64,000 bases of DNA, taken from assembly GCA_010015585.1 (NCBI GenBank), contig ML975152.1, one strand, 5' to 3'. This DNA comes from Eremomyces bilateralis CBS 781.70. Its lineage: Eukaryota. The notes beneath the pieces are model-generated. The model did not search any database. It was not told the DNA's origin and saw only the letters and a list, made by a program, of their open reading frames with translations. Below, one piece after another: positions 8,512 to 37,200 of the stretch. A program made the translations under genes and the position numbers. Position 1 is the first letter of the stretch. Each line of letters begins with the position of its first letter.

Positions 8512-8658
8512 AAGTCCCTTTTTAACCCACATTTTCCCACCAAAACCGATAATTTTATAAGCCATCTACCTTTACAACTTAGGCGGTCCTAATATGTTTT
8601 AAATAAATAAAATAAAACCATCAGTTTTGGTGGGAAAATGGGAGTTGAACGGAGACTT
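8512..8658. repeat. Imperfect ~47-bp inverted repeat around an AT-rich spacer (MITE-like)
   Basis: Left arm 8512-8558 AAGTCCCTTTTTAACCCACATTTTCCCACCAAAACCGATAATTTTAT; right arm 8612-8658 reverse-complements to AAGTCTCCGTTCAACTCCCATTTTCCCACCAAAACTGATGGTTTTAT. Identical core CATTTTCCCACCAAAAC. Confidence 0.75.
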
Positions 8659-10334: not shown

Positions 10335-10600
10335 AATGATCGATAATCGTTCATAACGATGAGACGTCATGACGGAGTTTCTTTTCCCACTTGTTTTCCG
10401 AGGGTTCAGCGAATACCCCCAATCTTATCAGGATGCTCTGGTTCAAATTTGACCAACCAAGTTTGGGAAATTGTACGAGCAGGCTAGCGGAAAGTTGAAA
10501 TTTGATAGCTGAAGTATTATCTTGAGGAATACGAGTCAAGTCAGGCTGCCATTCTTGCTAGGCGAATCTGTTTCATCCATCCATCGTGTTAGGAAATCCG

Positions 10601-14801: not shown

Positions 14802-17800
14802 ATGGATCATCAGCAATGGAATTCGTACGCCGAGAGCCCGTTGACGACCCGCTCACGATACGCTCCACAGACCGTCCCGTCACAACAGCCTCCACCGTCG
14901 ACTGCGAACCATAGCCACAACAGCAGCACTGGCCTAAACGACGCCTTAGCGGCGCCGCAGATGGGCCCGCGAGCGCCAACAATGCCGCTATCTGCTCCAC
15001 CACAGCAAGCGGCTCATCGACCGGAATACAACGGCCAGGGCGATGGAGACGGGGATGTGCAGATGGAGGACGCAGATCTGTATAAGCTCAAGCAAGCGTC
15101 TCAGACCGGAGGCCATCGTCGGATGCATTCGTCCCAGCTTGTCCAGCAGGAAGAATCCTCGGCTGCACGACGATATTCTCCCATGAATCTATCACCCGCC
15201 TCTCCATACGCGTCGATGCCTCCCCCACAATCCAACACGACCGCTTCTTATACAAGCTACACGCCACAAGTCCAATCGCGCCAGTCTCCCACTCGCCCGA
15301 ACTCCTACATGTCACCTTCTCAGACGTACTATTCTCCGCCTGGTACAGACCCCGACTACTTTGGACGGGATCTCGGACTGACCGATACTTCAGCTACTCG
15401 ACCGCATGCACCGCAACTCCCGCCGATCCAGTCGAATATGGGTCCAGAAGCCCATTTTCAGCCAAGTCAGATGGCGCAGCTTAATGCTGTGTACAGCAGA
15501 GAGCCAAGATCTCCACGGCCGATCCAGACACCGGTTGTTCAATCCGTCGCTGGCCCACCACTTCCGGTGCCAAAATTCCAGAAATGCACGACCGTCTCGT
15601 CGCTTGTGCCGAGCATCAATGAGCAACCGCCATTCCGTCGCGCAAACCCAGAGGGTGGTTTCATAAGCGTAAGCTTCTTACCGAGATGTTCTGTGCGGAT
15701 TACTGACAGTCCAAGCCCCTCCAAGCGTTGACATCGCATCTTCCTGCGACATATCGGATATGTAACCCTGGGTTCAAATACGAATCGTCGAGAAATCCGC
15801 GCCGAGTGCTCACGAAACCGAGCAAAGGTGTCAAGAATGACGGATATGACAATGAAGATAGCGATTATATTCTTTACGTCAATGACATCCTCGGGTCAGA
15901 AGATGCTGGTCACAAGTAAGGCGATCCAGAAGCAGTCGGCGCGAATCTGTACTTACTGGCGCTAAACAGGAACCGCTACCTGATCTTGGACGTTCTCGGG
16001 CAAGGTACATTCGGCCAGGTCGTGAAATGCCAGAACCTGCGAACACAAGAAGTCATTGCCGTCAAGGTGGTCAAAAACAGAACCGCATACTTCAACCAAA
16101 GCATGATGGAAGTGTCTGTCCTGGACTTGGTACGTGGATTCTTTGATTGAACGGTGGACATGGTCTGACTTTCAGAACAGATCAACAAGCAAATGGACAA
16201 GAACGACGATCACCACCTCCTTCGACTCAAAGATACCTTCATCCACCGCCAGCATCTGTGTCTAGTCTTTGAGCTCCTGAGCGTGAACCTCTACGAGCTG
16301 ATCAAACAGAACCAATTCCGTGGTCTAAGCACGACTCTGGTCCGAGTATTTGCGCAGCAGTTACTCCAGGGTCTGGCTCTGCTCGGAAAGGCCAAACTCA
16401 TCCATTGCGATCTTAAACCCGAAAATATCCTTCTCAAAAAGTGCGTGAGCAGGTGTCCAGTCTATTGACTATGCTAACCTGGGAAAAGCCTCGAGAGTCC
16501 TATTATCAAAATCATTGATTTTGGTTCAGCGTGCGACGAACGGCAAACCGTCTATACATACATCCAGTCTCGATTTTACCGTTCTCCTGAAGTCCTTCTT
16601 GGCTTGCCCTACTCCGCCGCAATCGACATGTGGTCATTAGGTTGCATTGTCGTCGAGTTGTTCCTTGGTCTGCCTCTCTTCCCCGGATCGTCGGAGTACA
16701 ACCAGGTCGCTCGAATTACCGAAATGCTGGGACTGCCGCCGAAATGGATGTTGGAAGTGGGGAAACAATCGGGAGAATTCTACGAGAAGGTCCAGGATGA
16801 GTTTGGGAGAAGAACGTACCGACTGAAGAGTATGGAGCAGTACTCGCGTGAGCACGGGACGAAAGAGCAGCCCAGCAAGAAATACTTCTCTGCTACGACA
16901 TTGCCGGAGATTATCAAGAATTACCCGATGCCACGGAAGAACATGAAACCAGCGGAGATTGAGAGAGGTAGAGTCACTATCCACACCCTTTGATGTATTT
17001 CGCTAACAGCAATAGAAATGGCCAATCGAACAGCATTCATCGATTTTGCCCAAGGGTTACTGAATCTGAACCCACTCGAACGATGGACGCCACAACAAGC
17101 CAAATTGCACCCATTCATTACCCAGACTAAGTTCACTGGTCCGTTTGTGCCTCCGATGCAATATCGAGCCGGAACGAGTAAGTCCCCGGCACCGGGCGTT
17201 CAAGAGCAGCAGCGTGCAGAAATGATGAGCCGACAACGAGAGGCTCAGCAAGCCGCTCAAGTTCAAGCGCAAGCACAAGCTCAGGCCCAGGCCCAGGCAC
17301 AAGCCCAGGCACAACAGAACGCCGCGTACGCACAAATGGCCATGAACCAATACCCCCCCACCCCGCACTCTCAACAGCCAACCCCTATGTACAGCCCCAT
17401 GTACAGCCCGCAAGGCGCACCCCCTCCCTATCAGACCCCCCACCAGACCCCTCAAGCCTACAACCCGCCTCTGAGCATGATGCCGGCCCACAGCCAGCCA
17501 CGCCACTACCAGCAACAGCCCCCGAACCTCTACGCCCAAGCGACCACCCGTGCCGGCCGCCAGCGGTCCTCCACTCTCGACCAACAAGGCAGCGGCGTCC
17601 CCCTGCAGATCCAGCGCGTCATGAGCCACCTCGATCCGAACGCGCCGATCCGGCTGCAGCCCAGCCCGGCATATTACCCGCCGCCTCCGGACGGCATACC
17701 CGAATCCAACAGCTCGCGGCGCCGCGGCAGCCGCACGGGCAACGCGCGGGGCAATCAGAATTTCATCCAGACGTTGGAGGATCGCACGCTCGAGGAGGGG

Positions 17801-17830
17801 TTTATGAACAATACGAATGGGCAGTGGTGA
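14802..17830 (+). CDS. YAK1: DYRK-family protein kinase Yak1, multi-exon
   Basis: [77 protein letters not shown] (DYRK YxY loop), [10 protein letters not shown]-rich C-terminus. Confidence 0.95.
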
Positions 17831-18722
17831 GGGAGGAACGGGCGGTCCCATGGATGGATGGGATTGGGATTAAAAGTGTTGGTTTCACTCCACGGTTTCA
17901 CGGGTTCGGGTCGCACCGTCTGAGGGTCGTGCGGGTGGGATCCTGCGTCGGGCGGTCGTCCGATGTGCTCGAATTCTGTAGCACGCACGAAATGACCTGG
18001 AGAACATGCTCCTCGGATTGCGGGGTCGACCGCGTCTTTCCCATTGCGCAGAGATTGTCGCACCGGACCCCGAAAAGACATGGGTTAGTCTCATTGCGAT
18101 GGGTTTGCGTTTCCTATGAAGGATGTCTAGAGTCGCATGGCGATATTCAGCTAGGATGGTACACAAGGGGACTCAGGAGATGACTATATTATACTTGATT
18201 TGATGATGGTGGAGGTGTGTTCGGAATTCTGGCGACGGCTGTATCGAACGAATGCAGTATGAAATATTCCGATTGTATCTTTTATATTGTGTGCAACTTG
18301 CTTGATTGATTGATTCCTACACCCGTTCGAGCCAACATCTGTCGGCCCACATAGGGAAAGTTGCAACTTGCAAGGAGCCTGAAGTGTGGTGTATTCCGTA
18401 CTTTACAATAAATTGGAGGAATTGGAGCTTTATGCCTTATTGCCTCAATTTGTCTCAGGCACCAAATAAATTATGTAACGTACCAAGGATCAAAGTTAAT
18501 CCGTTCGCTTGAACCCAAAAGCAACTGACCAACCACGTGAATGCCACCGCCCAGCGCAAACTGAGGTGAAACTTGACAGTGAGAGAGGAATACCCTGACG
18601 CCCCTCCACTACCGCGTCCTCCAAATAATTTCACCTCACACCCGAATTTCCATTTCCCTCTCCTGCACCGTCACTGCACCCAACCCAAGTGAACAAGCGG
18701 ACCAGCGGTCAGACCACCCATC

Positions 18723-21404
18723 ATGTCTCGCTTTTTCCACAGCAGCGACAGCTCGAGCGACAGCTCCTCCGGCGAGGAAGAACTCTACAAGTCCGACGCC
18801 GAATCGTCCTCCGGCGATGAATCCGAAGAATCGTCGGAAGAGGAATCCGAAGAATCGTCGGAGGAGGGGTCGGAAGAGTCCTCCAGTGATGAAGAAGATG
18901 GCGAGACCGGGTTAAACCGGTTCTTGAAGGATAAAGAAGAGAGCGAGGAGGAGAGTAGCGATGAGGAAGGGAAAATCACCATTGTCAAGAGCCAGAAGGA
19001 CAAGCGGTACGATGAGTTGGAGGCGACCATCCGACTCATCGAGAATGCGGAGAAGATTAATGACTGGGCGGTGATCTCTTCTGGTGAGCAGCCACAACCC
19101 GATTTGATGGCGACTGGCAACTCTAACATTGATTGTCTCTAGAATTTGACAAGCTGAATCGCATGATCCCCAATCTCATCAAGCAAAATGACGGAAAAGT
19201 CCCGAAAGTCTACGTCAAGGCGATCGCCGACCTGGAGACGACCATGCTCGAGACGATCGAGAAGCAGAAGGTTTCCCCGAAGAAGATGAACGCTATCAAC
19301 ACTCGAGGACTGAACGCCGTTCGTCAGAAAGTCAAGAAAAATAACAAGGACTACGCCAAAGATGTCGAGGCATACCGAGAGGACAAAGATGGCTTCATGG
19401 AGGAGACAGAAGTGGAGCAGATCGTTCAACCGACCCGGAAACCAAAGCGGACGCCCTTGAACGTTGCGGAAGACATGGTCGCTGGCGCAGACGACTCGGG
19501 CTTCACCATGGTGGGTGCCGGTGGCCGAGCGGTGCAATTCACACCCGAGAGCATCTTGAAACACCTGCGGACCATCGTGGAGGCGCGAGGCAAGAAGAAC
19601 ACGGATCGCACCGAGCAGATTCGCGTCATGGAGAAGCTGCTGGAGGTGGCGGTCAACGACTACCAGCGGATCCGGGTTCTGCTCACCGTGATTTCCACTC
19701 GTTTTGACTTGACGTCAGGAGCGGGGAACCATATGCCGGTGGATCAGTGGAAATTGTATGGCGGCTAAACGCAACTTTATGGACCGTGCTAACTATGATT
19801 CCAGGGCCGAGCAAGATTTCGGTAACCTCCTGACCATCCTCGAGACTAACCGCGACATTGTGGTTATCGAAGGCGCAGAGGAGTGGGAAGACGATGATAA
19901 GCAGCCAGTGTTCGTCGAGGGCGAACTCTTCAAAATTCCCGGCAGCATGGTCTCGTTCATTGAGCGGTTAGACGACGAGCTCACGAGGTCGCTCCAGCAT
20001 ATTGACCCGCACACTGCAGAATATGTTGAGCGACTGGCTGATGAGGGCGCTCTCTACAACAACATCGTCCGCGCGCTTCTGTATGTCGAGGTTTTGAAGA
20101 ACAACCCCAAGCTCGAGGCGTCTCAAGATTCCATCAACCGAGTAGTCATGCGCCGACTTGAGCATGTCTACTTCAAGGTATGTTGGTCGTGATCTACACT
20201 TTGAACCCTGCTAACTCCGGGCTAGCCCTCGCAAGTCGTCATCATGCTCGAGGACAATTGCTGGAAGGCAATCCCTGCGGAGCTGGACTCGAAGATCACC
20301 CCACGGGGCGAATCATCCGACACTGCTGCACTCGTCCGAACGCTCTGCACCTATCTCTTCTCGAACAGCGAAGGCATCATTAGGGCGCGCGCCATGCTAT
20401 GCCAGATTTACTTCCTTGCCCTACACGACCAGTACTACAAGGCTCGAGACATGATGCTCATGTCGCATTTGCAAGAGGGCATCAACAACTTCGACGTCAA
20501 CACCCAGATCCTCTACAACCGAACCCTCGTCCAGGTCGGTCTCTGTGCCTTCCGCGCAGGCCTGGTCTGGGAATCTCAAACCGCCCTTCAGGAGATCTGC
20601 GGCAGCAACCGACAGAAGGAGTTGCTTGCACAAGGTCTCCAACTGCAGCGATATTCGCAAATCTCCCCGGAGCAAGAGCGTCTCGAACGCCAACGCCAAC
20701 TCCCATTCCACCTGCACATCAATCTCGAACTCCTCGAATGCGTCTATCTCACCTGCAGCATGCTTCTCGAAATCCCTCTTCTCGCGCAACTCGGCTCCTC
20801 TCCCGAAATCAGGAAGCGCATCATCTCCAAGACCTTCCGTCGTCTCCTCGAGTACTACGAGCGACAGATCTTCACCGGGCCACCGGAGAATACCCGCGAC
20901 CACGTCATGCAGGCGTCAAAAGCCCTGGCCGCCGGCGAATGGAAGCGATCATCCGAGCTTATCAACGCCATCAAGATCTGGGACCTGATGCCGCAGTCGG
21001 CCAAGATCAAGGCCAGCCTCGCCGAGCAGATCCAGCAGGAAGGTCTGCGGACGTACCTCTTCACCTACGCGCCCTACTACGACACCCTCTCCGTCTCCAC
21101 CATCGCCAGCATGTTCGAGCTGAGCGAGAAGAACGTTGCCGCGGTCATCAGCCGCATGATCTCGCACGAGGAGCTGCGCGCTGCGCTCGACCAGGTCACC
21201 GGTACTATCATCTTCCGCAAGGGCGTGGAGATCTCGCGGCTGCAGAGCTTGGCGATCACGCTGAGCGACAAGGCGAGCATGCTGATCGAGTCGAACGAGA
21301 AGGTGCTGGAGCAGAGAACAGGGAACCGGACGAATCAGCCGAGGGGGCGGGGCCAGGGGAAGGGTCGAGGAGGAGGGGGAGATCGTGGGGGAGATCGCAA
21401 TTGA
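18723..21404 (+). CDS. NIP1: Translation initiation factor eIF3 subunit C, ~4 exons
   Basis: MSRFF plus acidic Ser-rich N-terminus, [60 protein letters not shown] domain; introns near 19084-19142, 19756-19804 and 20178-20226. Confidence 0.95.
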
Positions 21405-21971
21405 GTGGTTTGAAAGCAGTGTCATAGGCACAAGGCGTTTTGAACTCGTTTTAATAGCATAACATGAGCATGAACGCGATGCATCGTAAGGTTCATAGTA
21501 TGGTGCTCAAAAGGTTAGCTAGCTTCATAGGTAGCCATCATTCGACTTTGACGTATACAATCCGTTGTCCCATACCACGTGATCAAAGGCGGTAGCGGAA
21601 TGGGGTTGGGTCGCATCAATTCCAAGTCGCCCTGTTGCGATCCCACTTTGGAACGCTGGCGCTAGTTATCATGACAGCTATTCCGTCTCGCAGTCGTTCT
21701 GCCCTTCCTCCTCGGTCTGCGTCAAGACCTATTCTCGACTGATATCAGCCCATTATGGCCGATAACTTCGGGGCGTCTCCATCTTTGCTGCCAATCGGAT
21801 AGCACCTCCTCAATCCTGGTGGGAGCGCGTGCTTCCAGACATATTCTTGGTCGCGGCGCGGCCACGGCATGAATTTCGATATACTCGTACGCCTCCGGAA
21901 AGTTTGATCGCTTCCATGTCATCTTCTCCTTCACGTGGTGATATTCTGAGAGACCGATATCTTCTTGCTCA

Positions 21972-22833
21972 TCACCCGCCCGCGGCCTCGGTGATAAAGG
22001 TTGGAGACCAGTACTCAGCCTCGTCGCATTGCATATCCACCCAGACCAGGCCGTCTGCTAGGAGGTCTTCGATAACCGCCTTCGCTCGTGCCCGTTCCCA
22101 ACGGAGGTTTAACTGCAGCATCGAGACGGTGATATAGCCAAGGACTTGGATGACCTCCAGCACGGTGGATTGGTCAGTGTTGAGCTCTTTGGGGATGGAT
22201 CGTATCATCTGTTTGGTCCCCAGTTTCATGATCGTGAAACCGGATCCTAGAGGTTCGAGCGATTTGACGGCGCGGAGGATATCGTCGCTGTCTACAGTTA
22301 GCACCATATCTGCAATTCAGTCTGTAGAGGCCCACATACTCAGTCACCTCCATGCCGCCTCCGATCGCCTTCCCCTTCTGCACTCTTCGTCGCACCTCAC
22401 CTACGCTCATCATCCCCCCATTCTCCGCTCTTGTATCCCGACACACCTCCACGACCCTCACCCCCAACTCAAAGTAAAAATCATTCACACTTCCCCCCAA
22501 CATCTGACTCCACAGGTTCCCAATCCCCCCTGCCGCCCCCTCCACCACCTTCGCCGTTCCCGTTGGCGGCTTCCGCGCCGACGCCGCCAGCGGATCAACA
22601 CCGATGGCGTTGCACATGCGCGCGAACTCCGCGCGGAAGGTCGGATTCGAGCGGATGTCCTTGCCGTGCGTGATGCTGAACTGGTGAAGGAGCTGTTGGA
22701 AGACGGAGATTTGGGTCTGGAGGGAGTCAACGTGGGCGGCGCGGATGTTGGTGCCGTGGGTGGCGTATTGGGCGGAAGCGACGCTATTGTTGGAGAAGGC
22801 GGCGAGGCCTACGCCGCGGCGGGATGTCGACAT
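21972..22833 (-). CDS. SNF8: ESCRT-II subunit Vps22/Snf8 (EAP30), 2 exons
   Basis: RRGVGLAAF, FRAEFARMCNAIGVDPL, DFYFELGVRVVEVC, ENGG; after an intron near 22290-22337: DDILRAVKSLEPLGSGF, SIPKELNTDQ, GLVWVD...EYW. Confidence 0.93.
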
Positions 22834-23427
22834 TGCGAGGCGGTTTACATGTCATGGGGTTCAAGTACGTTCATCCGTATGGAGAAGAGTGGAATACCCG
22901 TGTCGTTGTAGTTAATGCTTTGCAAGTTGGCTAAGGAGTAGATCTGATGGTGTTTGGTGCATGTTTATCATCACGTGTGAGAACCACAATAATTACAGGC
23001 AGAATATGCGGAACTGTAAAATTGCTGCCGAAAAGGGTGGTATGTGACGCGGTTTTTGGGCGGGATTTCCACACGACCTGGTCACGAAAACCTTCTCTTC
23101 TCCCTTCCAAACACCCTGTAATGTCAAGCGCACGTGACTCTGTCTATCAGTTTCTGGGAGAAGAGTGTCAAGGCTCGAAGTACAAACGTAGCGTTATGTC
23201 ACGAAGATATCAATCTACAACTAGGGCCAAAGAAACTCTGATGAGTTGAACGCAAGGTCAAAGGAGTGTAGACCATGCTTGTTTATATACAATAAGTAGA
23301 TATGTGTCTGTGCACACCCCCGAAAATCACCAAATCTGATCGCCATACACCGTATCTTGAGATACGCTGAAAAACACATACAAATGCAAATTCAGTCTAC
23401 TTTTTTGGTTTCTTAATTGGGAAATAT

Positions 23428-24502
23428 CTAATATTTCGTATGCCACCCTTTTGCCTTGATTACCGCCTGTAGACGTCGCGGAATTGAGTCGATCAGCTCT
23501 CGGATCGTCTCCTGCGGGATCGCCCACCACGCCTCCTTTAACGCCGGATTCATGGCCTCCCGTGCCTCCTCCGAGGCGCCCATCGTCTTCAAATTTAGGG
23601 TGGAGCTCTAGGACCATGGTTTTCAACAGATGCCACATGTGTTCGATGGGGTTGATGTCTGGGGAATTGGCCGGCCAATCGATGACCCAAATGCCGTGCG
23701 TCTCCAGCCATTCTTGGGTGATTTTGGCCGTATGGATCCTTGCGTTATCCTGGATAACAACATCCCCGGGTTCATACGTAGGGAGAAGTCCCTCCTCTAA
23801 CGTAGCGATGTAGGATTTCGCGGAATAGCCCTGTCTTGCGGAGGTTTCGTCGCGGTCCATGATCACCAGGTCTGACCTCCCATCACGCGAGATTGAGCCC
23901 CCTATCATCTGTGAAATGGCCTTACCAGAGGTCTTAGGCTCTACCATTTGCGGATCATATGCCTCGTGGTACAGGCGCCATACCCATACCTGCTTACCGC
24001 CCGCCCCCTTCTCATACGAGCACTCGTCCGTGGAGTGGGTCCGGGAGAAGTCGAATTTAAGGAATTCGTGGGCAAACCGAAGGCGGTCTTTTGCGTGGTA
24101 AGGCTTCAGGTAAGGCCTCTTCCTCGCTCGCCATTTCGTAAGGTGATATTTCTTAAGGGTTCGGTAGATGGTCTTCCTAGGAACGCGGAGGTACGAAATA
24201 CCTGCGAGGAGCTCTCCGTACTCCATTTGAGGAAATCGACGCGCGATTTGAACGATATGCCGTTCGTCAGAGCGTGATAGCTTATGGGGACCCCCTTCAC
24301 GGGGTAAGGATACGGTGGTTTTGTGTTCTTCCCACCTCTCCATAGTCCCATACACCGCGCGTCGAGAGACGCGAAAGTTGCGCGCGATTTCAGTCTTTGG
24401 TTTCCCATCTTCAACAGCCTGAATAATCCCAGCTCTTTGAGAGACTGATAACTCCTTATTAGACCTTCGATTACCACTAATTTCTGTGCCAAAAGACCTC
24501 AT
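23428..24502 (-). mobile_element. Tc1-family (DD34E) transposase with a C-terminal frameshift
   Basis: HTH N-terminus (EIARNFRVSRRAVY), TDECS, QDNARIH-x-WPANSPDINPIE with exactly 34 residues between D and E. The canonical end (LIDSIPRRLQAVIKAKGWHTKY*, stop at 23428) lies in another frame, entered by a 1-nt shift near 23590-23596. Confidence 0.92.
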
Positions 24503-24772
24503 TTTGGTAAAGTTATTGATTGTCCAAGTAAGTGGTGGGTGTAGAGATATCAGCTGAGACTGGGGTCTGTGCGCAGACTCTTGGCTTAGTAGTTAGTGCT
24601 TTACATGGCGGTTAGACCTGTATTGTCAAGTAAAAATAACAAGTCCTACACTCCCAACCAAGGGGCCCCTATTGGCGCAGTGGACTTTCAACATGTATCC
24701 TCCTGGCTCACCGTTCCTCACGGTGACCCTGGTTCCTCCTGTGGCTCCGCCAATTGTTGAGCTTCCTTATAA

Positions 24773-27214
24773 TTATATTTTTGTGTCCACACCAACGACT
24801 GTCGGACTCGGCAAGCTCGCAGTATACCTTGAAACCGTCTCCACAGCACATTCCAGCTCTTTCGTAAAGTTGTCTTTCTTTTGTTTCTGCAAGATTCCCC
24901 GCTTCCTTTTCCCTTTCGGACTCTGGGCATTAGGAAATATCAAGCCTAGGGGCCGGCGATCGTAGAACTCTGCACGCTCGAAATCCACAAGCATGAGCTT
25001 GCCGCTATTTGTATTGTATAGAATGTTGCGGGGCTCTGCATCACGGTGAAGAACACCCAATTTGTGCACTGCTTTGAGCATTGTGCTGACGGCGTCGTTG
25101 ATGCCCGGTTTAAGGTCCTGGTCCACACAGTCAAACAGGGGTTGTCCAGCCCAGCTGAGAAACATGAAATGCACGTAAACACCGCAGTCATAGTAGTATG
25201 GCCGGACCAAGTCTATACGGTCGAGACATACGGGAACGTGTTTTCCCTGGATAGGCCGGAGTCGGTTGTACATCTCGTTCTCGTGCTGTAAGAGGGCACG
25301 ATCGAGTCCCTCCACACCCTTGGCAACGAGCGTATAGCCGTGGGATGACAGCCGAACCTTGAAGAGTGATCCCCGCGCCCCCGATAGATAGAGTGGTGTG
25401 CAATCCGCATCGCTGCCGCGGTCCGTGGCAAGCTGGTCTCGGATGAGTCGGAGGAACTCGAGCCGGCTGATGTGCTCCTGCCCGTGATAGTCTGCGTTAA
25501 GGCAGTTCTCGTCCGTAGGCCCGCCATATGCTAATCCCAGGAGACAATTTTGTGAACAGAATGGCCGGCTTTGTATGTCCGACTTCGTCGCTGGGCCCGA
25601 CTGCTGCTGATTGCCTCGGTGTTGTCCTTGGTTCCCACCACCATGCGAGCTTGTTCCTCTCGACGGCGCCGCTTTCCCATCAGTGCGAGAGGGATTGGGG
25701 GTAGGGGAAGGAGGGTCGTCGTCTTCCTCTGACGGTCCAGCACTAGGGTTCGGCTGCTGGCAGCGAGACCGGGTCCGAACTGGCGACCTCTTGAAGCCTT
25801 TCCAGCGCTGCGGCTTATATGGAGAAGCACGGGGTTCCTTACGTTTTCGTTCTGTGGCGGGGATATCTTTCAGAATATCATCGTACTCCACAGCCCAAAG
25901 ACCAAGGGTCTCGGTCTCGTCTTGCCATGACTGGGTTGGTGGACTTGCGCGAAGAGCTTGGAGAATAAAGGCTAAAACCTGTGCGACGGCTGTTCGATGG
26001 AGTCTCGTCTCATCGTCATCCATTACGTCTTGGTCCGGTAAGCATACCGAGTAGTAGACTATTGACGGATCGTCTGGAATGTGGAGGAAGACGAGTGCCT
26101 GTCCAGTGCACACGTAACCGTACCGGATGCTCTTGCCGATCATATAGGAGAAGAGCTGGGTGATGACGGCAGCGGTGAGCCGCTTGGCTGTGAAGTCAAA
26201 ACCTCGGCCATCATGGTTGATCACATCACGTTCCGGCTGAATTTCTGACTCAAGGCCTGTGATGATCTCATCCACTGTCAGCTTGTGCGGTGCCTTGTAT
26301 TCAATAGCGAGCGCTGGGACTTTTTGGCCACCCGTAGTCCTGTATATACAAAACTGGTCCGCCCGATTGCCCCTGCCCCTCGCTTTGCGACGAGTATTGG
26401 AAGCCGTCGGTCGCTCCGGGATAAACGCTGACGCCACTACATCAGAGCTTCCCCCACCAAGAGGCATGTGCTCCATGGGCTGAGATATGGGATCGTCGGT
26501 TGTACCGAGATTCGTGTGACTTTCGAATGTCACGGACCCTTGGAGGTCAAGATTTCTTCGTAGTAGTGGATCCGTGTATGCCCTGTCCATTAAATTTTGA
26601 ACGGCGTTTTCGACGACAACATGCTCGAAGTATCGGAGCCCAATCTCACTGCTAATAGGCTTGAGCATCGACTTCACGTAATCCATCTGATGCTTAGATG
26701 GAAATGCGGGCGTGGAGAACAAGTCGCCGACCGAAAGGGCGTTCCAGATCTCCTCCTGTCTCATTGCAAAGTCATCCCAGGGTATAATTTGTCGAGGGAA
26801 AATTCGGCCGGTCGGATTGGTAGTCTCGCCTTGCGTAGTCAAAGATCGGTTAGTTACAACCTGAATAGCAAGATAGACTGAATGGCAGGTCTCGAGGTAT
26901 TGCTGAAGGGTCTGCGGCTGCGATGTAGTGGCAAGTTCTTCGGCTGCTTTGCGTCCGCGTTGCTCCTCTTCACGTTGTCGCTGCGATGTAGCGGCAAGTT
27001 CTTCGGCTGCTTCGCGTCCGCGTTGCTCCTCTTCGCGTCCGCGTTGCTCCTCTTCGCGTTGTCGCTGCGATGTAGCGGCAAGTTCTTCGGCTGCTTCGCG
27101 TCGGCGTTGCTCCTCTTCGCGTTGTCGCTGCGATGTAGCGGCAAGTTCTTCGGCTGCTTCGCGTCGACGTTGCTCCTCTAGGAGCCTTCGTCGCAGGTCT
27201 TCGATATCGTCCAT
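24773..27214 (-). CDS. Spok-like protein (coiled coil + PD-(D/E)xK nuclease + Cys cluster + kinase), 813 aa, intronless
   Basis: N-terminal heptad repeats; RADQFCIY...AIEYKAPHKL (K307); QLFSYM...YGYVCTG; C553-x3-C557-x13-C571-x5-H577; GARGSLFKV, LVAKG, LHRD(725)AEPRNIL, LVDFER. Confidence 0.85.
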   Translation of the reverse strand: MDDIEDLRRRLLEEQRRREAAEELAATSQRQREEEQRRREAAEELAATSQRQREEEQRGREEEQRGREAAEELAATSQRQREEEQRGRKAAEELATTSQPQTLQQYLETCHSVYLAIQVVTNRSLTTQGETTNPTGRIFPRQIIPWDDFAMRQEEIWNALSVGDLFSTPAFPSKHQMDYVKSMLKPISSEIGLRYFEHVVVENAVQNLMDRAYTDPLLRRNLDLQGSVTFESHTNLGTTDDPISQPMEHMPLGGGSSDVVASAFIPERPTASNTRRKARGRGNRADQFCIYRTTGGQKVPALAIEYKAPHKLTVDEIITGLESEIQPERDVINHDGRGFDFTAKRLTAAVITQLFSYMIGKSIRYGYVCTGQALVFLHIPDDPSIVYYSVCLPDQDVMDDDETRLHRTAVAQVLAFILQALRASPPTQSWQDETETLGLWAVEYDDILKDIPATERKRKEPRASPYKPQRWKGFKRSPVRTRSRCQQPNPSAGPSEEDDDPPSPTPNPSRTDGKAAPSRGTSSHGGGNQGQHRGNQQQSGPATKSDIQSRPFCSQNCLLGLAYGGPTDENCLNADYHGQEHISRLEFLRLIRDQLATDRGSDADCTPLYLSGARGSLFKVRLSSHGYTLVAKGVEGLDRALLQHENEMYNRLRPIQGKHVPVCLDRIDLVRPYYYDCGVYVHFMFLSWAGQPLFDCVDQDLKPGINDAVSTMLKAVHKLGVLHRDAEPRNILYNTNSGKLMLVDFERAEFYDRRPLGLIFPNAQSPKGKRKRGILQKQKKDNFTKELECAVETVSRYTASLPSPTVVGVDTKI
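26918..27178 (-). repeat. Coding tandem repeat: 63-bp (21-aa) unit x~3.8 plus one extra 21-bp (7-aa) unit
   Basis: EEQRRREAAEELAATSQRQRE x2, EEQRGRE, EEQRGREAAEELAATSQRQRE, EEQRGRKAAEELATTSQ; copies nearly identical at DNA level. Confidence 0.95.
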
Positions 27215-28359
27215 TATGATGGTAGCGTAGGCAAAAGGTTCGTTCGCTCAGAAGACTATACTAGAGGCTAGAGCTCATTTGATCAATCTGGACGATCCTG
27301 GCAGGGACCTGATATGAAGGGAGACTGGATCTGGATAAGCTAGGTGATTGCCGTTGGTTAATGATGTTGGGTGCAAATACGTTGGCTGCGGGTTGTTGGT
27401 GGTTAGGAGCGAGGGGGGGTAAGTCGCGGCAAGACGATGTAAACACAGGGCGCGTTTGGAACCCCTCGCCCCATGATAGAGGGATTTACTACAGCTGCGT
27501 AATTACGTCGTAGATTGGAAAGTTTTGGGAGTGTTAGGATTTGGAATGTCTGCAGATGCTCAATGTATAACGCAGAGGTAGAGAGACGATCAAGATCGAC
27601 AAGGGCAAAAATGTTATAATAGGAAACTGTTCCCGAGGGACTGTCCAAAGGTCTGTAGAACTTCTGTTGTATTGTAATTGAAACCAAAATAACAGTGCAG
27701 AACCGCTCCTTATATAATCCTCCTGCCTATCCGTTTGCAGCACATTCCTTAACTTCGCCATAGGGGAATGTTCTTCCCTTTATTCCATATCTCTTTGTCT
27801 AACTCATACAAAGGAAAGCCCAAACCGGAAGGCTAATCCCAACACGTCAGTCACAGGCCTTCAGATTACATCCTACCATCGTAGAACCAAAGGGGTGGGG
27901 TGGTAATAGTAAATACCATAAACATAGCTTATCAACATTATCAACTTAAGAAATTACATTCATGTCCTTTAACTATCCGCAGAGTATCTATTCCAGGTTT
28001 CCGCTATGATGGTGGATAATACGGCTGTTCTTTGCCGGCTGCCTACAACCCAGGAAATTCAAATCCGCCTCAGCCCAGAATGCAAGCATATTCAACATTC
28101 CTCCATGTTCTGTGAAGCCCCGTTCTCGTCTGGTCTGTCTCCATCTCATCGCACTTGTTGCATCTTCAAATCGGTTTGTGCAATTTTGGTTTTTTTCTGT
28201 CAAGTCCTTCGTTACAAAATGCCGGCCGAGCGCATAGCCTCGCAAACTCCCGACATCTTCGTGACACGAGACACCTCTTAGGGAAAGATTGGAGTGCCAT
28301 TGAATTTCGTCATATCTGTATCGTTACCGCCCATCTGTATCTCATGGTGCGGACTAAGA

Positions 28360-30669
28360 CTACACGATGCGGATGGTCACCCTAGGACTCTCTTCCAGCT
28401 CATCTCCGGCGACCATTGGCATCCATGCTTCATCCACAAGGACATGTTCACCACCTCCCACATGTCTTAGAACGATTGGGAGCGGTGCCCCTACCACCAA
28501 GGCAATGCTATCCCCTTCTTGCACATCCGCAGGGAAAAGCCCGATGAAACCCTGCGTTGACAGTCCAAGTCGACGACCGGTTCCATAGCGAACCAGATTC
28601 TTCCGTATCAGGTCGTGCCCATACGGGTCATACTTGAAGGCGGGGTCCACGAGTTGCGATCGGACGGCCTTGAGATCCAGCATGTTATGGTACTCATCCA
28701 CTTCTTTTGCCGTCTTCGGCGGGTCCCCGTAACGATTTGCCTGGATCCTATCCAGGGAGAGAAACTCTTTCCATCCTTCTGTGGGGTACTCGTACTCGCT
28801 CGCCAGATTGTTCTGAAGATACTCGATGGCATAACTCTGGAGATCCTCTCTTTCTGCGGCTTCATCAACAAACTGTTGCCAAGCCTCCATCACAGCGTCT
28901 AGCTGGCCGGTGGTGGAATCGTTGGGAACGACCGTATCACAGACCAGGTCAACGGTCTCCCAGAAGATTCCTTCCGTAAGGAGTGTTTCGCCCTCGACTT
29001 TCATTCGTGGCGTTCCACTGATATGTCCGCCGGTATTGAAAAGCCGAAAAGGCTGGGCTTTCCACTCCTCCAACAGATTTGGCGCCCAAGAAGGAACATC
29101 GTGGTCCCGTTCTGGGTTTTGACAGAGCCCGAATGTGACCGGGCATTCCTCTTCCTTGAAGATTGCGAGCACCGCGTTCGTCATCACCTTTTCAAAAGGC
29201 AGACGATAGTCGACAGGCACGTCATAAATCTCATGATCGGCGAGTCCAAGTATAGCGTACACTTTGTCCCTGGGATCAGTCGCTTTTCGCGCTCTCATGT
29301 GATCCAAAAGGAAGGATAGTTCAAGGAACTGAGTCCCATGTTTATTCTTCTCCTTCAGATCCAATATCTCGCTTGCACTCTCGTAGAAGGGGACCACCTC
29401 CTGTATTGGGTTCGGCTCCATGAGGGTTTCGGGATGAAACCCAATGTCTTCAACGTATGCTACAGCCGAGAAGAAATCACCCAGTTCATAGAAGTCCAAC
29501 GTTTTCCCGCCGTAACATATGGAGGCGTCCCGTGTTAACGCTATCGGAAGGGTGAGTTGAGGTCACGCTGAATAGAACGGAACGTAGTTTACTAACCAAC
29601 CTCCTGACGTACCCAGCACCGCGACCACCAAGGCATTTGGAAAAACCGCCGCAATTCTTCCCAGTTTTTCTGGACCACCTCTATTGTGGACTTCTTATGT
29701 TGTCGCTCCCTACGCCCGGGTTGACGGTCATTGTGCAGGATGGCGCCCTTAATCACATCGATGGCATTATAACTGGGGTCCACAGGCTCTCCGAGCCAGA
29801 TAGTAACACCGCGCGACAATTTGTATATCTCGCGCATCAAACCTACCTGCGCGTTGCGTTCTTCGACGTCGGATTGGTTGATACCTGTTTGATATACTTT
29901 AGCCTCGTCCTGGTGCCTCATATATATTCAGAAAGAAGACACTACACGTACAAACCTGGTCAATCCACCATTTTCCTTGCGTTAGATTTTCGATCTTACT
30001 CAGCTCCACCAACGCGTTCTTGAGACTAGTGGTGATACTCGCTCGCTGACCATCAATGATTATGCTCGCATCAAACACGGAATCTCCCCAGGTATAAGAC
30101 AACGCCGTGTACTCCTTTGGCTGCGACTCCGCCATGACCTCGGCAAACCAATTGGGGTCTTTTCTCATCTTCGCCAGGTTCTCTGGATCGGACATGTCTG
30201 GGATTTCTGGCATTGTCCACGAATCACTGTCGAAGGAGTCCAAGCTGACATGGTGGAGTTTTCCCTTGAGAGTCTCGGGGTCGGATCTGTCTTTCACGAG
30301 TTCCAGGACCCGGATCTGTCGCTGAGAGGAGTCGAGTGGCTTGTATTCAAATTCCTTTGGCTCTTCGACTTCATCTTGCTCCTCGAATAGGCCGCCGAAC
30401 CTTACTTCGTCTGTTGGGTCTTCTGCATCGTCTGTTGGCTTTCGTTCCCCGTCTGTTGGTCCCTCAGCAGAGGGGACCATAGGAAGAGCGGGTTGCGGAT
30501 TGCCAGGCACCTCCCACCATTTCGGGTTTCTGAAGCTATCGAGCTCGCCTAGTCCTAGCTTTTCCAATACGGCGCCGAGAGCATTCTGCACTGTGTCAAA
30601 CTTCGTATACATGTTGTCCCTGTAGTATGGTTCCAGCGCCGGATCGAGATCGGGGTATGGGTGTGACAT
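28360..30669 (-). CDS. HET-domain (heterokaryon incompatibility, het-6-like) protein, 3 exons
   Basis: YKPLDS...QIRVL, YTALSYTWG, WWIDQVCINQSD (restored by intron 29951-29885, GTACGT...CAG), ERNAQVGLMREIY, WWSRCWVRQEVAL (intron 29596-29541), ATDPRDKVYAILGL, VPSWAP. Confidence 0.92.
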
Positions 30670-31005
30670 CTTTGGAATTTATTTCGAAAATTGCACAGGA
30701 TTTCAGTTGATTGGGGACACCTGCAACTGTAGAGGCCAAAAGAAAGCAAATTTAGGGACTCTAATAACTCCAAGCTTTTCTACTATGTTTTCATGAAAAC
30801 ATCGGGGAAGGATAGCAGCAATTACAGGAAAGGAGACATTTTGTTGGGGATTTTATTTCTTAAGGGCTAAATTGTACCGGTCAAGGTCCTCCGCAACCGA
30901 AGGACGCCGTCTCGTATGAATACGAGAGACCCCTGTAATTATATCACTGCACACCAAGACTGACGGTCGGAAATTTCAGAAAACATTAAAGCAACAGGCG
31001 TCAAG

Positions 31006-32875
31006 TCACACCGAAGATAGGTTCGAATAAGCTCGAACTATCGCATTGGCTTCCTCGTCCACGCGGCTTCTGGGGGCCCTATCCGTGCTCATTCTACCCA
31101 CCACTTCTTCCTCCTCCTTGTCACGTAGCATCCTCTCCAAGGTACCAGCCCTACGCCGCCTGACACCGTCTCGTATGTCTGAATTACCGTTGCTTGACAG
31201 GGTGCCGGGCCTACCCTCGAGCGCTGCAGCGGCTCGGACGGCAGTCATCGTCTCTTCCTCAACCCGACCGCGAGCAAAACCACCTTCATCACGGTCCTCC
31301 TGCATCTGAGGCCACAGAACCTGACGAGTGATGACGGCGCGGATCGTCATACAGAACACGAAGGCCCAGGTAAGGAGAACCATGCATGCAAGCACGCATC
31401 CGAAGATTTGGATCGGGCGACTTGGGCCTAATACCTTTGCCACGGTAAACGTCGCGGACACAAGTGCGGTGTTCGGGAAGACGAAGGAATACCACGTCAT
31501 CGCAAACTCCATATGTCCTTTGGCGGCACTGCTATAGTGTGCTCCGATGGAAATAAGAAAGAACCAGAGAGCCAGTCCCCACATCCAGATTCCAGTCCAG
31601 TTAGCGATGACCATGGATATCGCCCCAGCTAATTTTCCATCTATTCCCATGAACTCTTCGTGTGACTCTAAGATAGCAGGAAGTAGATTGCCCATGTTCA
31701 TTATGCCGTTGATGGTGAAGCCAGAAGGGCCGACTGATATGAACATCCCGGGTCGGACTGATTCCCTAGGCAGCTTTTCTGTCATCAGGCGATAGATGAA
31801 TGAAGCATAGATCATGAATGCCACCATGAAACCTGTTGCCTGTAGGACGTAACCCCCAATAATCACCTGAAGCGCCCGATGGTTCGGGAGTTTGCCAGCG
31901 AGATTGCCAGCGTACGGTCCAGCAAGAAGCAGTGGATACGCAGGAAAGATCCAAGTAGGTGTCATACGGGATATGGTAAAGGTTTGGGTGGACCACCTGC
32001 AAGGGCATTAATAAATTGTCGACAGGAAAGACTGAACTGGACCAGGCATACATGACCAAATAAATGCCACACGAGAAGATTATCGCTAACGCACAATAAA
32101 TCCAGAAGAGTACCATCATTGCTTCTGTCAACCATGTATCCACTTGAAGCCCATGTCCCCTGTCGACCGTACTCCGTGTCCCATATTGTGTGATGTTGAT
32201 CAAGATAGTCCCGAAACTTATGATAGCAGCCGGCGCGAAAAGGGATTCGGTAGGATGTATAAACGAAGCCCTGAATGTGACAGGATATAGGTAAAATCGA
32301 GTGGATATCATTGCGATGTTGAAAGCGAACAGAACTATATTGAATAGAAAAAAGAAGCATCCGATTTCATACAGCCCTGGGAATCGAAGGGGGACTGAGT
32401 AGGCCTATTAGTGACATCCATCTAAGCCGGCATGTATGGGATACTTACTAGAATGTATCATATTCGCAAGACCGCCAGTTGCCATGGTCATCGCAAACCA
32501 TGTCCAAGTAAAATGCTTTATCCGCTGTTTAAACCCCAGACTCGGCGCCCGTTGACCATCCCAATACGAATACTGTCTAGAACTCGGGCCGGCGGCCCCT
32601 GGAGGTCTTCCATTCCAGTCCTCCATTTTAGGCACGAATCCCTTGTGTTGCCTGGGTCCCATATCCTCCTCCCTGAAGACTTCTGGCCGAGCTTTTGGAT
32701 GGTCTCGGAATGGGTCTTCAGCGACACTCCGTAAAGAAGGTCTTCCAGCGAAGTCGATCCGGGAAGTCCTACTGGTAGAAGGCGTATGGGTCCTCCAAGC
32801 AACGGAATCTTGACTCCGGGGTTGAATATCTTCGTAGACGGGGCCGGATGGCTGAGTCATTCTGGCCGGGAGCAT
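31006..32875 (-). CDS. C4-dicarboxylate/malic acid transporter (SLAC1/TDT family, Mae1-like), 3 exons
   Basis: RIKHFTWTWFAMTMATGGLA, SFIHPTESLF, MTPTWIFPAYP, RPGMFISVGPSGFT, FAMTWYSFVFPNTA. Start is ATG 32875 or 32860. Confidence 0.9.
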
Positions 32876-34264
32876 GCGGCCTGGAGCTGATATCGAGCAA
32901 GCCGACGACGGCAAGACCCCCTAGCTTTTTATATCTCCGATGTGTTCGGTATGATTCTAGGCTTCTAGCATATTGACCTGCAATGGAAACATTGCAAGAG
33001 AGGCGAATTGGTGCCGAATGAGGTCAGGATTCCGGCCCACCTGTTCAAGGCTCCTTATCAGTTGTAAGCTGCTAAGGAAATGTTCTTGAATGGCGAATCG
33101 AAGGTAGAACATTTATGATTAGGAGGTGAACCGGCCGTATAATTTGTCAAAACTCCAATTGGAGACCGATACTGTCTCCTAGGTGCGGAATTCGTGGGTG
33201 TGAGGCATCTGACGAAACGTCCCAAGGGAATATGTCTCTGTATAACCTGAAGCCATCCGACCGGCTCCCTCGTGCTCTGCGCCGTTGCGGAGACGTCCCC
33301 ATGAATTATGAACCCCACTAGAAGCAGCGCAGATCAAGCTCAAGTGCTGCATTGGTGACTGATCGTGCCTCGTTTGTACATGATATCCGTGGGCTCCGTA
33401 ATGGTGCCTCCATAGCCGTAGACGTCATTGGTTGGCTAGAAGGATGCAAGCATCAGCGCCGGGTTGATGTGCAGAATTCATGACAGGCCTAGCTTGCCCC
33501 TGCTGGGCACCGCGGGGTGACTCGAAGTGCAATTGGTATCCTATCTACAGGTGTCAGGTAGTCGTACAGCTGATGATGAATGTATGAAATTCTTTTGGAT
33601 GGTTGCACAAGCGTGGCGACGGAGATTATGTCACGATGCCCATGGTGAATATCTTGGGGAAGCTAGCCATGCCAGCCATGCTCTAACCCGATGAGAAGCA
33701 AAGTATATGCTTGTTTGAGCAGTAGATATTAACCGTTGTCGAAACTCGTGATCGACACACTGATCGATGCACGAAGATACGAATGGGGCATACCCGTGAC
33801 ATCAACACATGGCTGCATTTGTGGAACCGAGGATGCGAAGGCTGACCATCATCCCTTATCCTAGCACCTTATCGAGCGCTCCTGAGGTTAAGATGATTGC
33901 TTGTATCTAAACTATGCTACGGTAACAGTATACTATATCGCTTCCTCTTGGGGTATCGTACAAAATCACCCGACCCTTGGGATAAATAGTCCTGTTTACG
34001 TTCCGTATAACACCAAGCCGTACTCAGCGTCATTCCCTTATAGACGCCGTGCGACCCTGGTTTCCGCCTGAAGGTGCTAGAATGAGCACTCGCAAGACAC
34101 GGCAGACTGCAGCTATTGATGTCTCGAACCCTCGCTCATGCTACATTCGGCTGGAACGACCAGCAACCGTCGTCTTAAAACGCCTCGATATGATCAAATG
34201 GGCAGACGAAAAAATAGAGAGATCCATCATACCGGACTCTGCCCTCTCTTACAACGCTTCCTGC

Positions 34265-37200
34265 TCACCAGAACGAGCACCATCCAATGTAATGCTGACA
34301 CAAGTTCTCCAGATTCGTCGCCTCGCGAATCAGCCGATCCACCTGCATATCCACCCCCAGTTCCGGTGTCGGCTTGAAGTCACGACCCGTCACCTTCTCC
34401 CTGACGCGGCCGAGCACCTGCAGCGCCCTCGCGTTCTGCACTTCCTTGGCTTCGGTGTCGTTGACCGCGTTCTGCTGCGCGTAGGTGGACGAGCGGGCGC
34501 GGGGCCGGTAGGAGGAGTCGCGGCGGGTGTGGGAGGGGAGGGGGTGGTCGGGGATGCTGGAGGCGGCGCCGGTGGCGGCGGGCTCGACGCCGATGATGGA
34601 GGCGCGGCGTTCGGAGGTGAAGGAGGTTTCGCCGGGAGATTCGCGGTTGTTGAGACGCCAGGTGAGGAGCGGGTCGTGGATGAACTAAGGGAGACGAAAA
34701 GTCAGTACAGGATAAATAGAAGAAATCGATCGAAGGACGTACCGCTTCCAACACCGCCATCACGCTCTCCTTGTTATCCCGGAGAACCCGCATCACATGT
34801 TCGCAGGTGGTTCGATAGCTTCCCTCGATGTTGCTGACTTCCATCGCGTACGTCAACATGCGAGTGAGGCGGAACGGCACGCGCTCCGGATATTTCTCTC
34901 GGTGCATGGCAACCTCGAAGCAGTCGCCAAAGTCGATGTGCACGATCTTGCCGGTTATGCGATCCAACATCAAGTTGGAAGGGTGTCGATCGCCCAATCC
35001 AAGAATGTAGCCAACCATGCTCATGACCGCCAAGCTGCGCGTGTAGTTTGTTCGTCGCGCAAGCCATTGCTCAGACGACTTGCTCTTGAGCCAGAGGACA
35101 CGGTACAGGTCCTGGCCGGTGGTGTTGTCCAACGCGTACCCGAACACCTCAACTTTCTGCATCAGCGTCAGGCTGTCGTAATCGGGTGCCATCTGCAGCA
35201 TGATTCGGTGCTCAATGTTGAGAAGAATCTTGCGACTCTCGCGATACTCGCGAATGAGAACGTGAAGGGTGTCGCTATTAGGCACAAAACTCAAAAGACC
35301 GGACTGCGTCGAAAGCGGAATGGCGGAATATCGCTGGACGTCGAGATGCCGCTTGCGGCATTCGGCATCGTTGGCCAAAAGCGTGTTGCAGAGCCCAAAC
35401 AGCTGCATGACTCGTTCATCTTGACGAATATCCTCGTGCCCTTTGAGAATATACTGGTAATTGTTCCCGTCGCTTCCGCGCAGGATCAGTCTCCTCGGGC
35501 GCTGCTTCGACTGAATGACATGGCTGATCGAGTCGAACGACGCAATGCGAACAACCGGTTTCCTGGGATAGTAGGTGCCCGGAATTGCCACGTCCAAGTC
35601 TTTCGCGTCTCTGAGTTTGGGAGACACGTACTGCATCTCGAGGGTCAAAAGCGTCGGAAGTTGCCGGGCGATCTTCCGGAAGACCTGATAGTAAAGGTCC
35701 CATGCTTGGTTGATGTCACCCTCTTCACGGGTCTGTTTGAAGGTATTGCACCAGTCTCTCGCCTCCCCAAGCTCGCGCCCAAACGACTGGATGAAGGAAA
35801 TCTCGCGAAGAGTCTGCGGCCCATCGTCGACCATGTCGTGCAGCGGCTTGAGAACCGAAAACATCCCCGGGATATTCCGATCGCCGAAGTACAGTCGCGA
35901 TGCTTCTTCGAGGCCCTCGTGCCATTGCTCATGCCAAAGGACGGCGATTCGGATGAGCTCCGTGCTGACGAGCTCCGCTTGCTCGACTAGCTTGGGGGAG
36001 TGCTGACGCATGACTTCCATGAGCTCCTTGGCGTGCGACTTCGGCTGGTGCGCATCCGACTTGACGGACACGGTGAATGGAAACACCAGGGCCTGAGGGT
36101 GCGCCCGCCCAAGCATGATGAGCAAATTGTGGATGGATTCTCGGACGATCCGGTTCGGTTGGTTGATCCGAGCCAGCAATTGCGGGATGACTTCAAGCCA
36201 AGTGTCCACGCTCACGAGCTCAATGCCTTCCCGAACCGCCTTTCGCACATCCGGGTGGCCTCCGTGAGCAAACCACATGGTGAGCAGACGTAGCGTGTCC
36301 TGCAACGAGCTGCTCAATGAGAGAGAAATCGACTGGAAGAACCCCTCGATGGCGGGCACGACGTGATCTTTGATCGCACTCGAAGGGAAGTCGGTAGTTT
36401 CGCGATCGCTCGACGAATTGTAGGAGTTGATGACCTCGAAATTGGCCAATGCCCATGCGTGCCATGCCTTGTACCACGACTTGTTGTGCTCCGTAGCGGC
36501 TTTGTACGCAGCCAGAATATGGTGAACCCTTTCGCCCTCCCACTTACTTTCCAGAAGCTGTTCCTGCCACTCTCCGAGTCTTAGATAACATTTGGCCAAA
36601 AGGGTGCGGTCTTCTTTGAGCGCTTCGTCAATGATGACGTGGGTTGGCTTGGTATCGTGGTCTCGACTGGATTGTCCAGTAAGGAGATGGGGATTGACCT
36701 GCGGATTGCCTTGATGTTGCGGGAATGTGCGATGTCCCTCCTCCCGCTTCTTCGCATCCTCGATCGTTCGGGCAATGTGTCGAGCACGGTGAGAAATATC
36801 CTCCGACACCTTGGTGCTGAATCCTTTCAGCAAATCCAAGGCATACCCTTGTTGGCCCTTGCCCCACATGTACTTGAATGCGGTGTATGCGACTTTGTAG
36901 CTGACAACCTCGGTGTTGTGCATGTTGGCCTGGATGTAGTGGGCGATCGGCTGGCTGGTGTTCAGCATCGAATGTAACGACTTCTCCGCCAGGCCCAGAC
37001 GATTGTTCTTGCGGCACAGATTGGTATACTTGATCCAGATGGCGATATTCTCGCTCGGCCCGATCACCAAGGAGCGGACCTTCATCATGCGTTGCCATAC
37101 TTCCGGATTCGGCTGGCAGCCCTTGAGGCGTTTGGCCCACGTGAGTCTCATCATTTGCATCTTGTCGTCGTCATCTTCGGCCTGGAATTTCTTGTACGCC

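Follow-up and report, generated by a model that had tools for sequence, protein, structure and literature searches.

A transcribed Spok-family nuclease–kinase gene in the dothideomycete Eremomyces bilateralis, probably acquired from a distant class of fungi

Introduction

Among single-protein meiotic drivers, Spok genes are those best understood, and their transfer between species has been proposed. The present work concerns a 64,000-nucleotide stretch of contig ML975152.1 of Eremomyces bilateralis CBS 781.70 (assembly GCA_010015585.1), referred to below as the window, and an open reading frame (ORF) on its minus strand that had been read, from its letters alone, as an intact, undescribed Spok-like poison–antidote gene and a candidate meiotic driver (hereafter, the original prediction). 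The locus raises three questions: whether the ORF encodes a Spok protein, whether that protein may kill and protect, and how such a gene came to be in a Dothideomycete.

The architecture published for SPOK3 begins with an N-terminal coiled coil that corresponds to a variable-length DNA repeat, followed by a domain of unknown function, a PD-(D/E)XK nuclease (219–240), a QxxxY motif, a C-x3-C-x13-C-x5-H cluster with a trailing ...H-x7-H, and a kinase (PMC6660238). The nuclease lysine is required for killing and the kinase aspartate for self-protection; SPOK3 K240A loses killing and keeps resistance, and D667A is toxic (PMC6660238). DNA damage caused by SPOK1 D680A has been described in E. coli and yeast (PMC9972908).

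The Open Reading Frame and Its Family

The ORF is uninterrupted, as the original prediction had it, and between its bounding stops the frame runs for 824 codons. It encodes a full-length Spok-family protein, a conclusion strongly supported by full-length colinear alignment, conservation of the catalytic and motif residues, matching folds and a variable N-terminal repeat, all of which bear out the family membership proposed earlier. Of 7998 candidates scored in a protein search with the ORF, 498 reached E ≤ 0.001; the top matches had E = 0, and the resemblance to the Spok family is therefore far beyond chance. The 120 best of these 498 homologues are listed, and statements about closest relatives refer to the matches listed. 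The precomputed family PF27653.1 is present on all 120, and the Spok-type family comprises 760 representative clusters at E ≤ 1e-30.

The best match is XP_033536437/KAF1814806 (P152DRAFT_430801), a 757-aa ‘hypothetical protein’ of E. bilateralis CBS 781.70 itself, which matches 91% of the query at 100% identity. The description of the gene as new holds in part: no literature linking Spok with Eremomyces was found, but NCBI already lists the gene as a hypothetical protein/protein kinase, and its family is known across Pezizomycotina, where Spok homologues are widespread (PMC12693581). Eremomyces is absent from Vogan et al. 2019 (PMC6660238), supplementary tables aside; among the paper titles listed, again with supplementary tables aside, none names a Spok driver in Dothideomycetes.

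Comparison with Podospora was made with two proteins annotated ‘spok spore killer’, in place of the reference SPOK1–SPOK4. Colinear alignment gave 453 identical residues of 774 aligned with P0123 from P. comata (‘Putative spok spore killer’) and 455 of 792 with P0088 from P. aff. communis (‘spok spore killer’), corresponding to 57–58% identity from end to end. Ten residues of the nuclease and the Cys/His cluster (D286, E305, K307, Q353, Y357, C553, C557, C571, H577 and H581) and four of the kinase (H723, D725, N730 and D744) are identical in seven of seven aligned sequences. Two wider alignments, each of 60 diverse sequences, gave almost the same picture: D286, K307, Q353 and Y357, C553, C557, C571 and H577, and H723, D725, N730 and D744 are invariant in 60/60, and E305 and H581 are each conserved in at least 90%. 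Position 589 is His in the Podospora proteins and Arg in the ORF and in Hirsutella rhossiliensis; H581 is present.

A script check found the EYK motif (K307) at its expected place, and D286, 21 residues N-terminal of K307, completes a D...ExK signature with the same D-to-K spacing as in SPOK3 (219–240). EYK/K307, C553/C557/C571/H577, D725 and the DFE at 744 lie exactly where they had been predicted. The assignment of K307 and D725 as catalytic residues stands as far as alignment with the annotated Podospora proteins and conservation can carry it. The ‘HRD’ reported for the kinase needs amendment: H723 and D725 are invariant, but the Arg between them is not conserved (HCD/HGD in the Podospora proteins). 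Only the kinase catalytic core was detected with Pfam, at residues 681–753, with Pkinase and Kdo matches at 700–753; Kdo scored 24.6 bits, above its cutoff of 21.3, and Pkinase scored 25.6 bits (9.5e-6), under its cutoff of 31.7.

Predicted Structures

The model of residues 100–470, which include domain 1 and the nuclease, has a predicted local distance difference test score (pLDDT) of 81.1 and a predicted template modelling score (pTM) of 0.83. VIA-align placed the BpuSI nuclease domain first (Z 10.2; root mean square deviation 3.5; 149 aligned residues). Lower in the list come DrdV (Z 8.2) and, from V. vulnificus, the HsdR fragment 3h1t (Z 7.1); most entries are PD-(D/E)XK enzymes. The same 3h1t was the best HHpred match given by Vogan et al. 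(PMC6660238). A Foldseek search with this nuclease model gave no PDB match at E ≤ 0.001. The model of residues 540–813 has a pLDDT of 89.7, and its fold matched 500 or more kinase chains in the PDB (E ≤ 0.001; best 5.1e-8); when solved structures were searched by sequence, the catalytic loop 712–752 alone matched (best E 3.3e-4). The models thus predict a restriction-endonuclease-like fold and a protein kinase fold, in agreement with the Spok family.

N-Terminal Repeat and Gene Model

The first 100 residues consist of 21-aa units, each the length of three heptads, encoded by a tandem repeat (Table 1). The heptad periodicity noted in the original prediction is thus present, and a coiled coil may be expected from it. 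Alignment showed that the length of the repeat varies among homologues and between two Eremomyces copies of the gene, and a variable N-terminal tandem repeat agrees with the published description of Spoks.

In the NCBI gene model, 27001–27168 is spliced out as a GT..AG intron that keeps the frame, at a cost of 168 nt or 56 repeat residues, and this is the sole difference between that model and the ORF. The ORF reads on through this region, and homologues align across the repeat. No RNA joint at 27001–27168 was reported in the contigs of the RNA-derived run described below, which may fail to assemble through the repeat. A false intron in the NCBI model of another Spok homologue has been recorded (PMC12693581, Table 1 footnote).

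Transcription and the Second Copy

Contigs of three runs (X1, X2 and X3) were mapped on 18500–33000 of the window. X2 and X3 are DNA; X1 is not recorded as RNA. Nine GT..AG joints, located in eIF3c, Vps22, the HET gene, the SLAC1 gene and at 27324->27381, are present in X1 and absent from X2 and X3, from which it follows that X1 is RNA-derived. Two further runs labelled as this species, X4 and X5, contain hardly any of the words searched for, from which neither absence nor polymorphism follows. X1 contigs cover the Spok ORF. In the contig with the joint at 27324->27381, the shorter side of the joint spans 188 letters or more, so that the spliced 5′ leader reaches into the ORF. The gene is transcribed, with a spliced 5′ leader; contigs yield no expression levels, starts or ends.

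The same strain carries a second copy on another contig (P0003, P152DRAFT_454075, XP_033539119, 743 aa, 88% identity), known as a protein and from variant letters in the contigs. At least 40 places that differ between the contigs and the window were listed, 12 of them in the neighbouring transposon and 28 in the Spok ORF; all 28 of the latter encode the residue of the paralogue. X1 has window letters alone at some differing places, paralogue letters alone at others and both at others still. As X1 holds letters of both copies, both are represented in RNA. Every catalytic or motif residue examined is retained in the paralogue. The 28 differences comprise 15 synonymous and 13 non-synonymous changes, or 19 transitions and 9 transversions. 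The repeat-induced point mutation (RIP) indices of the ORF, 0.70 and 1.10, do not indicate a RIP signature by the thresholds for these indices.

Bounds of a duplicated unit were sought from breaks in the contigs, and the attempt was abandoned, the contigs being mosaics of both copies; the breaks at about 24629 and at 27713–27750 are explicable by the end of the Tc1 element and a short low-copy repeat, respectively.

Possible Function

By analogy with SPOK1 and SPOK3, the PD-(D/E)XK nuclease (D286/E305/K307) would inflict DNA damage on nuclei or spores without the gene, and the C-terminal kinase of the same protein (D725 and D744, with the Cys/His cluster upstream) would protect carriers. The outcome would be biased inheritance via spore killing in crosses of carriers with non-carriers; killing after hyphal fusion or loss would be an alternative route to the same bias. 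In E. bilateralis, which came from pack-rat dung, cleistothecia containing asci are formed and an asexual morph is not known (PMC4150071; PMC7082219); because it forms asci, a meiotic arena exists. Toxin activity, antidote activity and drive are inferred for the Eremomyces gene from the studied proteins. On balance, it is somewhat more probable than not that this is an intact, transcribed Spok-family toxin–antidote gene, acquired from a Hypocreales-like donor and then duplicated, which may kill in spores or after fusion as SPOK1 and SPOK3 would suggest.

Several observations weigh against this reading. Two of six Fusarium homologues with conserved catalytic residues were toxic in a yeast assay and four were without effect (PMC12693581), and intact motifs are therefore no guarantee of activity. 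The gene lies among housekeeping genes (eIF3c, Vps22, TOR) and not in an accessory region. The window has 102 stop-to-stop frames of 120 aa or more; Pfam scans of 61 of them, the Spok frame included, and of two shorter ones revealed no DUF3435 captain. The two copies are 12% apart in protein, unlike the near-identical multi-copy pattern that Vogan et al. linked to active drive (PMC6660238). Comparison of the copies gave an omega (ratio of non-synonymous to synonymous rates) of about 0.3 (binomial p 0.001–0.007, with a neutral expectation of about 70–75% non-synonymous changes), a value from a partial sample of stretches at least 95% alike; it suggests purifying selection, which is equally compatible with a function for the host. 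The identification of P0123 with SPOK1 is also unsupported (catalytic Asp at 725, against the published 680 for SPOK1).

Such points lend themselves to another explanation, in which this Spok homologue does not act as a toxin–antidote at all and is either a nuclease–kinase that serves the host, for example in recognising non-self or signalling DNA damage, or a weak, fixed remnant of a selfish element. The low omega, the core-genome site between housekeeping genes and the 88% identity of the copies, which are not near-identical, are all in keeping with it, as is the representation of the gene in the X1 RNA contigs, for which culture conditions are not on record. The authors of the Fusarium work, with its four inactive homologues, themselves raise a non-selfish native function, yet their yeast negatives may stem from assay sensitivity (PMC12693581). 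Against a host function, both Eremomyces copies retain all residues known to be necessary for killing or resistance, and their clade is multi-copy, patchy and phylogenetically incongruent, as is typical of selfish Spoks. This explanation is tenable, if less probable than not.

A bolder version of the toxin–antidote reading can be framed: a Spok from a Hypocreales lineage of nematode and insect pathogens, without a recognisable Starship, entered a dung-inhabiting Dothideomycete and was duplicated there, the two transcribed copies now being distinct, active spore or fusion killers. This is unlikely, though it would matter: if true, a Spok driver would for the first time be at work outside Sordariomycetes, and in a fungus that reproduces through asci only.

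Phylogeny and Origin

The host is a Dothideomycete; the closest proteins among the matches listed are from Hirsutella rhossiliensis (Sordariomycetes, Hypocreales), with 604 of 756 aligned residues identical in P0004 (80%). The resemblance extends to the disordered linker, in which 60 of 75 residues are identical to H. rhossiliensis, as against 31 of 64 for Podospora. Only three of the 120 matches listed come from Dothideomycetes; two are the Eremomyces copies themselves and the third, from Lineolata, has 64% identity.

A FastTree phylogeny was built from 122 rows (the listed matches, 120 less P0002, together with the query and a further two cluster members). The Eremomyces copies are sisters (support 100) and stand beside H. 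rhossiliensis (96), within a 19-row clade (99) that contains, besides the pair, 15 Hypocreales and two unnamed rows. An IQ-TREE phylogeny under LG+G4 was made with 39 of the 122 rows (a 27-row subtree and 12 others) and has an arbitrary root. It recovered the Eremomyces pair (100/100), the Hirsutella sister position (91/98), the 19-row clade (96/98) and a 22-row clade (97/97), and the named members of these clades other than Eremomyces are all Hypocreales. Forcing the 20 non-Eremomyces rows of the 22-row clade together was rejected by the approximately unbiased (AU) test (difference in log likelihood 66.8, p-AU 0.0028), the group having been chosen after the tree was seen, a caveat on this result. 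The nesting of the pair in a Hypocreales clade indicates cross-class horizontal transfer. The gene probably arrived by horizontal transfer from a distant class of fungi, and the trees are read most economically as a transfer out of a Hypocreales-like lineage with a later duplication.

The 19-row clade also holds two near-identical H. minnesotensis copies, and no clade I marker was identified in the trees. Multiple near-identical copies of H. minnesotensis have been placed in clade II (Vogan 2019 preprint, 10.1101/562892), and the Eremomyces gene may therefore, on this indirect evidence, belong to clade II, which includes Podospora, and not to the single-copy clade I. Incongruent Spok trees and proposed transfer across species have already been published (PMC6660238; PMC12693581).

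Vertical descent from an old ancestor, with repeated loss and unrecognised paralogues, might also account for the resemblance to Hypocreales; families with many paralogues can imitate transfer, the root of the tree is arbitrary, and Vogan et al. retained this alternative for part of clade II (PMC6660238). It would have to accommodate the supported nesting among named Hypocreales (96/98 and 97/97) and the AU result, an identity of 80% to H. rhossiliensis (60/75 in the linker) as against 64% to Lineolata among the matches listed, and the scarcity of Dothideomycetes there, where two of three entries are the Eremomyces copies. Vertical descent is accordingly considered quite improbable. Contaminant DNA in the assembly, which closest relatives from another class might suggest, can practically be dismissed: X2 DNA depth is 143–230 over the ORF and about 160 in the flanks, the ORF lies inside 64 kb of ordinary housekeeping genes on a contig of 1.59 Mb, and no Hypocreales protein exceeds 80% identity.

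Comparison with Known Systems

With the Podospora spore killers SPOK1–SPOK4, reportedly described by Grognet in 2014, the Eremomyces gene shares the domain order and the published motifs (repeat-encoded N-terminus, domain 1, nuclease, QxxxY, Cys/His cluster and kinase), as well as a single coding frame free of introns. It is solitary, as Spok1 and Spok2 are, and lies outside any Spok block. It differs from the Podospora SPOKs in its 57–58% identity to the annotated proteins, in Arg589 in place of the last His and in its Dothideomycete host. The homologues of H. rhossiliensis and H. minnesotensis are nearer (80% over 756 residues with P0004), are sister in the trees and likewise occur in several copies per genome; their hosts belong to the Sordariomycetes (Hypocreales), and they are themselves uncharacterised. 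The wtf genes of S. pombe are also single-gene poison–antidote meiotic drivers and follow the same logic, but have no relation to Spok in sequence or mechanism; they give two transcripts that encode membrane proteins, and not a nuclease–kinase enzyme.

In F. poae, FuSpok1 and FuSpok2, and in F. oxysporum a spok carried by a Starship, have been shown to be toxic once the kinase Asp is mutated or to stabilise dispensable chromosomes (PMC12693581; bioRxiv 10.64898/2026.10.04.756499). Vegetative action of the family comprises this stabilisation and a gain of fitness via hyphal fusion (PMC12693581; bioRxiv 10.64898/2026.10.04.756499). The Fusarium cases show that the Spok family can act outside meiosis too. 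Unlike the Fusarium spoks, which are found on accessory chromosomes or Starships, the Eremomyces gene is located between core genes, and none of the 61 frames scanned out of 102 contained a captain.

That the Eremomyces gene adds a member to the known Spok family, and a case of cross-class transfer, is well supported; existing knowledge of how Spoks work is unchanged by it. A transcribed, intact pair in a coprophilous, apparently obligately sexual Dothideomycete, nested among Hypocreales genes, constitutes a concrete and testable case of transfer at the level of classes. E. bilateralis is a new host for asking whether the Spok family drives outside Sordariomycetes, and since the nuclease and kinase residues are all present, the published yeast and E. 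coli assays are directly applicable.

Genomic Neighbourhood

The features of the gene and its surroundings are given in Table 1. Other neighbours identified with Pfam include an aldehyde dehydrogenase, an MFS transporter, a protein kinase, a SLAC1-type transporter, Rsc7, ribosomal protein L7 and a SNF2 ATPase. A role of the gene as Starship cargo was considered and rejected on account of its housekeeping flanks and the missing captain in the scanned frames; a decayed or captain-less element is conceivable.

Table 1. Positions of the Spok-family gene, its parts and selected neighbours in the 64-kb window
Feature	Position	Strand	Details
Spok-family ORF	24773..27214	−	ATG 27214, stop 24773; 813 aa counting the stop
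Tandem repeat	26917..27203	−	63/21-bp units encoding 21-aa units; Tandem Repeats Finder (TRF) rows with periods 21, 63, 84, 147; repeat family D1
Domain 1 and PD-(D/E)XK nuclease domain	25805..26917	−	residues 100–470
D286 codon	26357–26359	−	nuclease
E305 codon	26300–26302	−	nuclease
K307 codon	26294–26296	−	nuclease
QxxxY motif		−	residues 353–357
Cys/His cluster	25472..25558	−	C553-x3-C557-x13-C571-x5-H577-x3-H581; motif positions checked by script
Kinase domain	24935..25414	−	approximately residues 601–760; catalytic loop H723/D725/N730, D744-F-E
D725 codon	25040–25042	−	kinase
5′-leader intron	27325..27380	−	56 nt, GT..AG; 110 nt upstream of the ATG; joint 27324->27381, one X1 contig
HET-domain gene	28360–30678	−	directly upstream of the Spok gene; introns spliced in X1: 29540->29597, 29881->29949
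Tc1/mariner element	23263–24654	−	inverted ends 23263–23284/24633–24654, 22 nt, 73% complementary
eIF3c	18.7–21.4 kb		Pfam
Vps22/EAP30	21972–22851		Pfam
TOR	34383–41471		Pfam

The Spok stop codon is followed, some 120 bp downstream, by the Tc1/mariner element, which encodes a transposase with HTH_Tnp_Tc3_2 and DDE_3 domains. This transposase had been called broken, and rightly so: it is frameshifted near its C-terminus, which resumes in another frame, and a related RNA contig is one base shorter at 23591. DNA depth over the element is 2000–21000, as against 160–230 in the flanks (10–100x), which points to a high-copy family; the family is also found in the RNA contigs. No annotated E. bilateralis copy of the transposase is among the matches listed. 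Transfer of the element together with the Spok gene was rejected, the best transposase match being 46% identical (Aspergillus tanneri) and none of the 67 matches listed coming from Hypocreales. The HET gene was rejected in the same role; its best match has 33% identity (14 matches, to longer proteins only). With neither the element nor the HET gene having close Hypocreales relatives, nothing beyond the Spok gene looks co-transferred. The C-terminal 393 aa of the HET protein have no relative above 33% identity among these longer proteins.

Between the Spok promoter region and the 3′ end of the HET gene, the interval 27713–28177 has a summed depth of about 2–3 times that of its flanks (365 vs 160 in X2; 699 vs 232 in X3). 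DNA contigs break at 27713–27750, and one contig diverges past 27750; these features suggest a short low-copy repeat. At 487–1371 on the plus strand, far from the gene, there is an isolated fragment of a DDE_1 (pogo/Fot-type) transposase that spans only profile positions 37–177.

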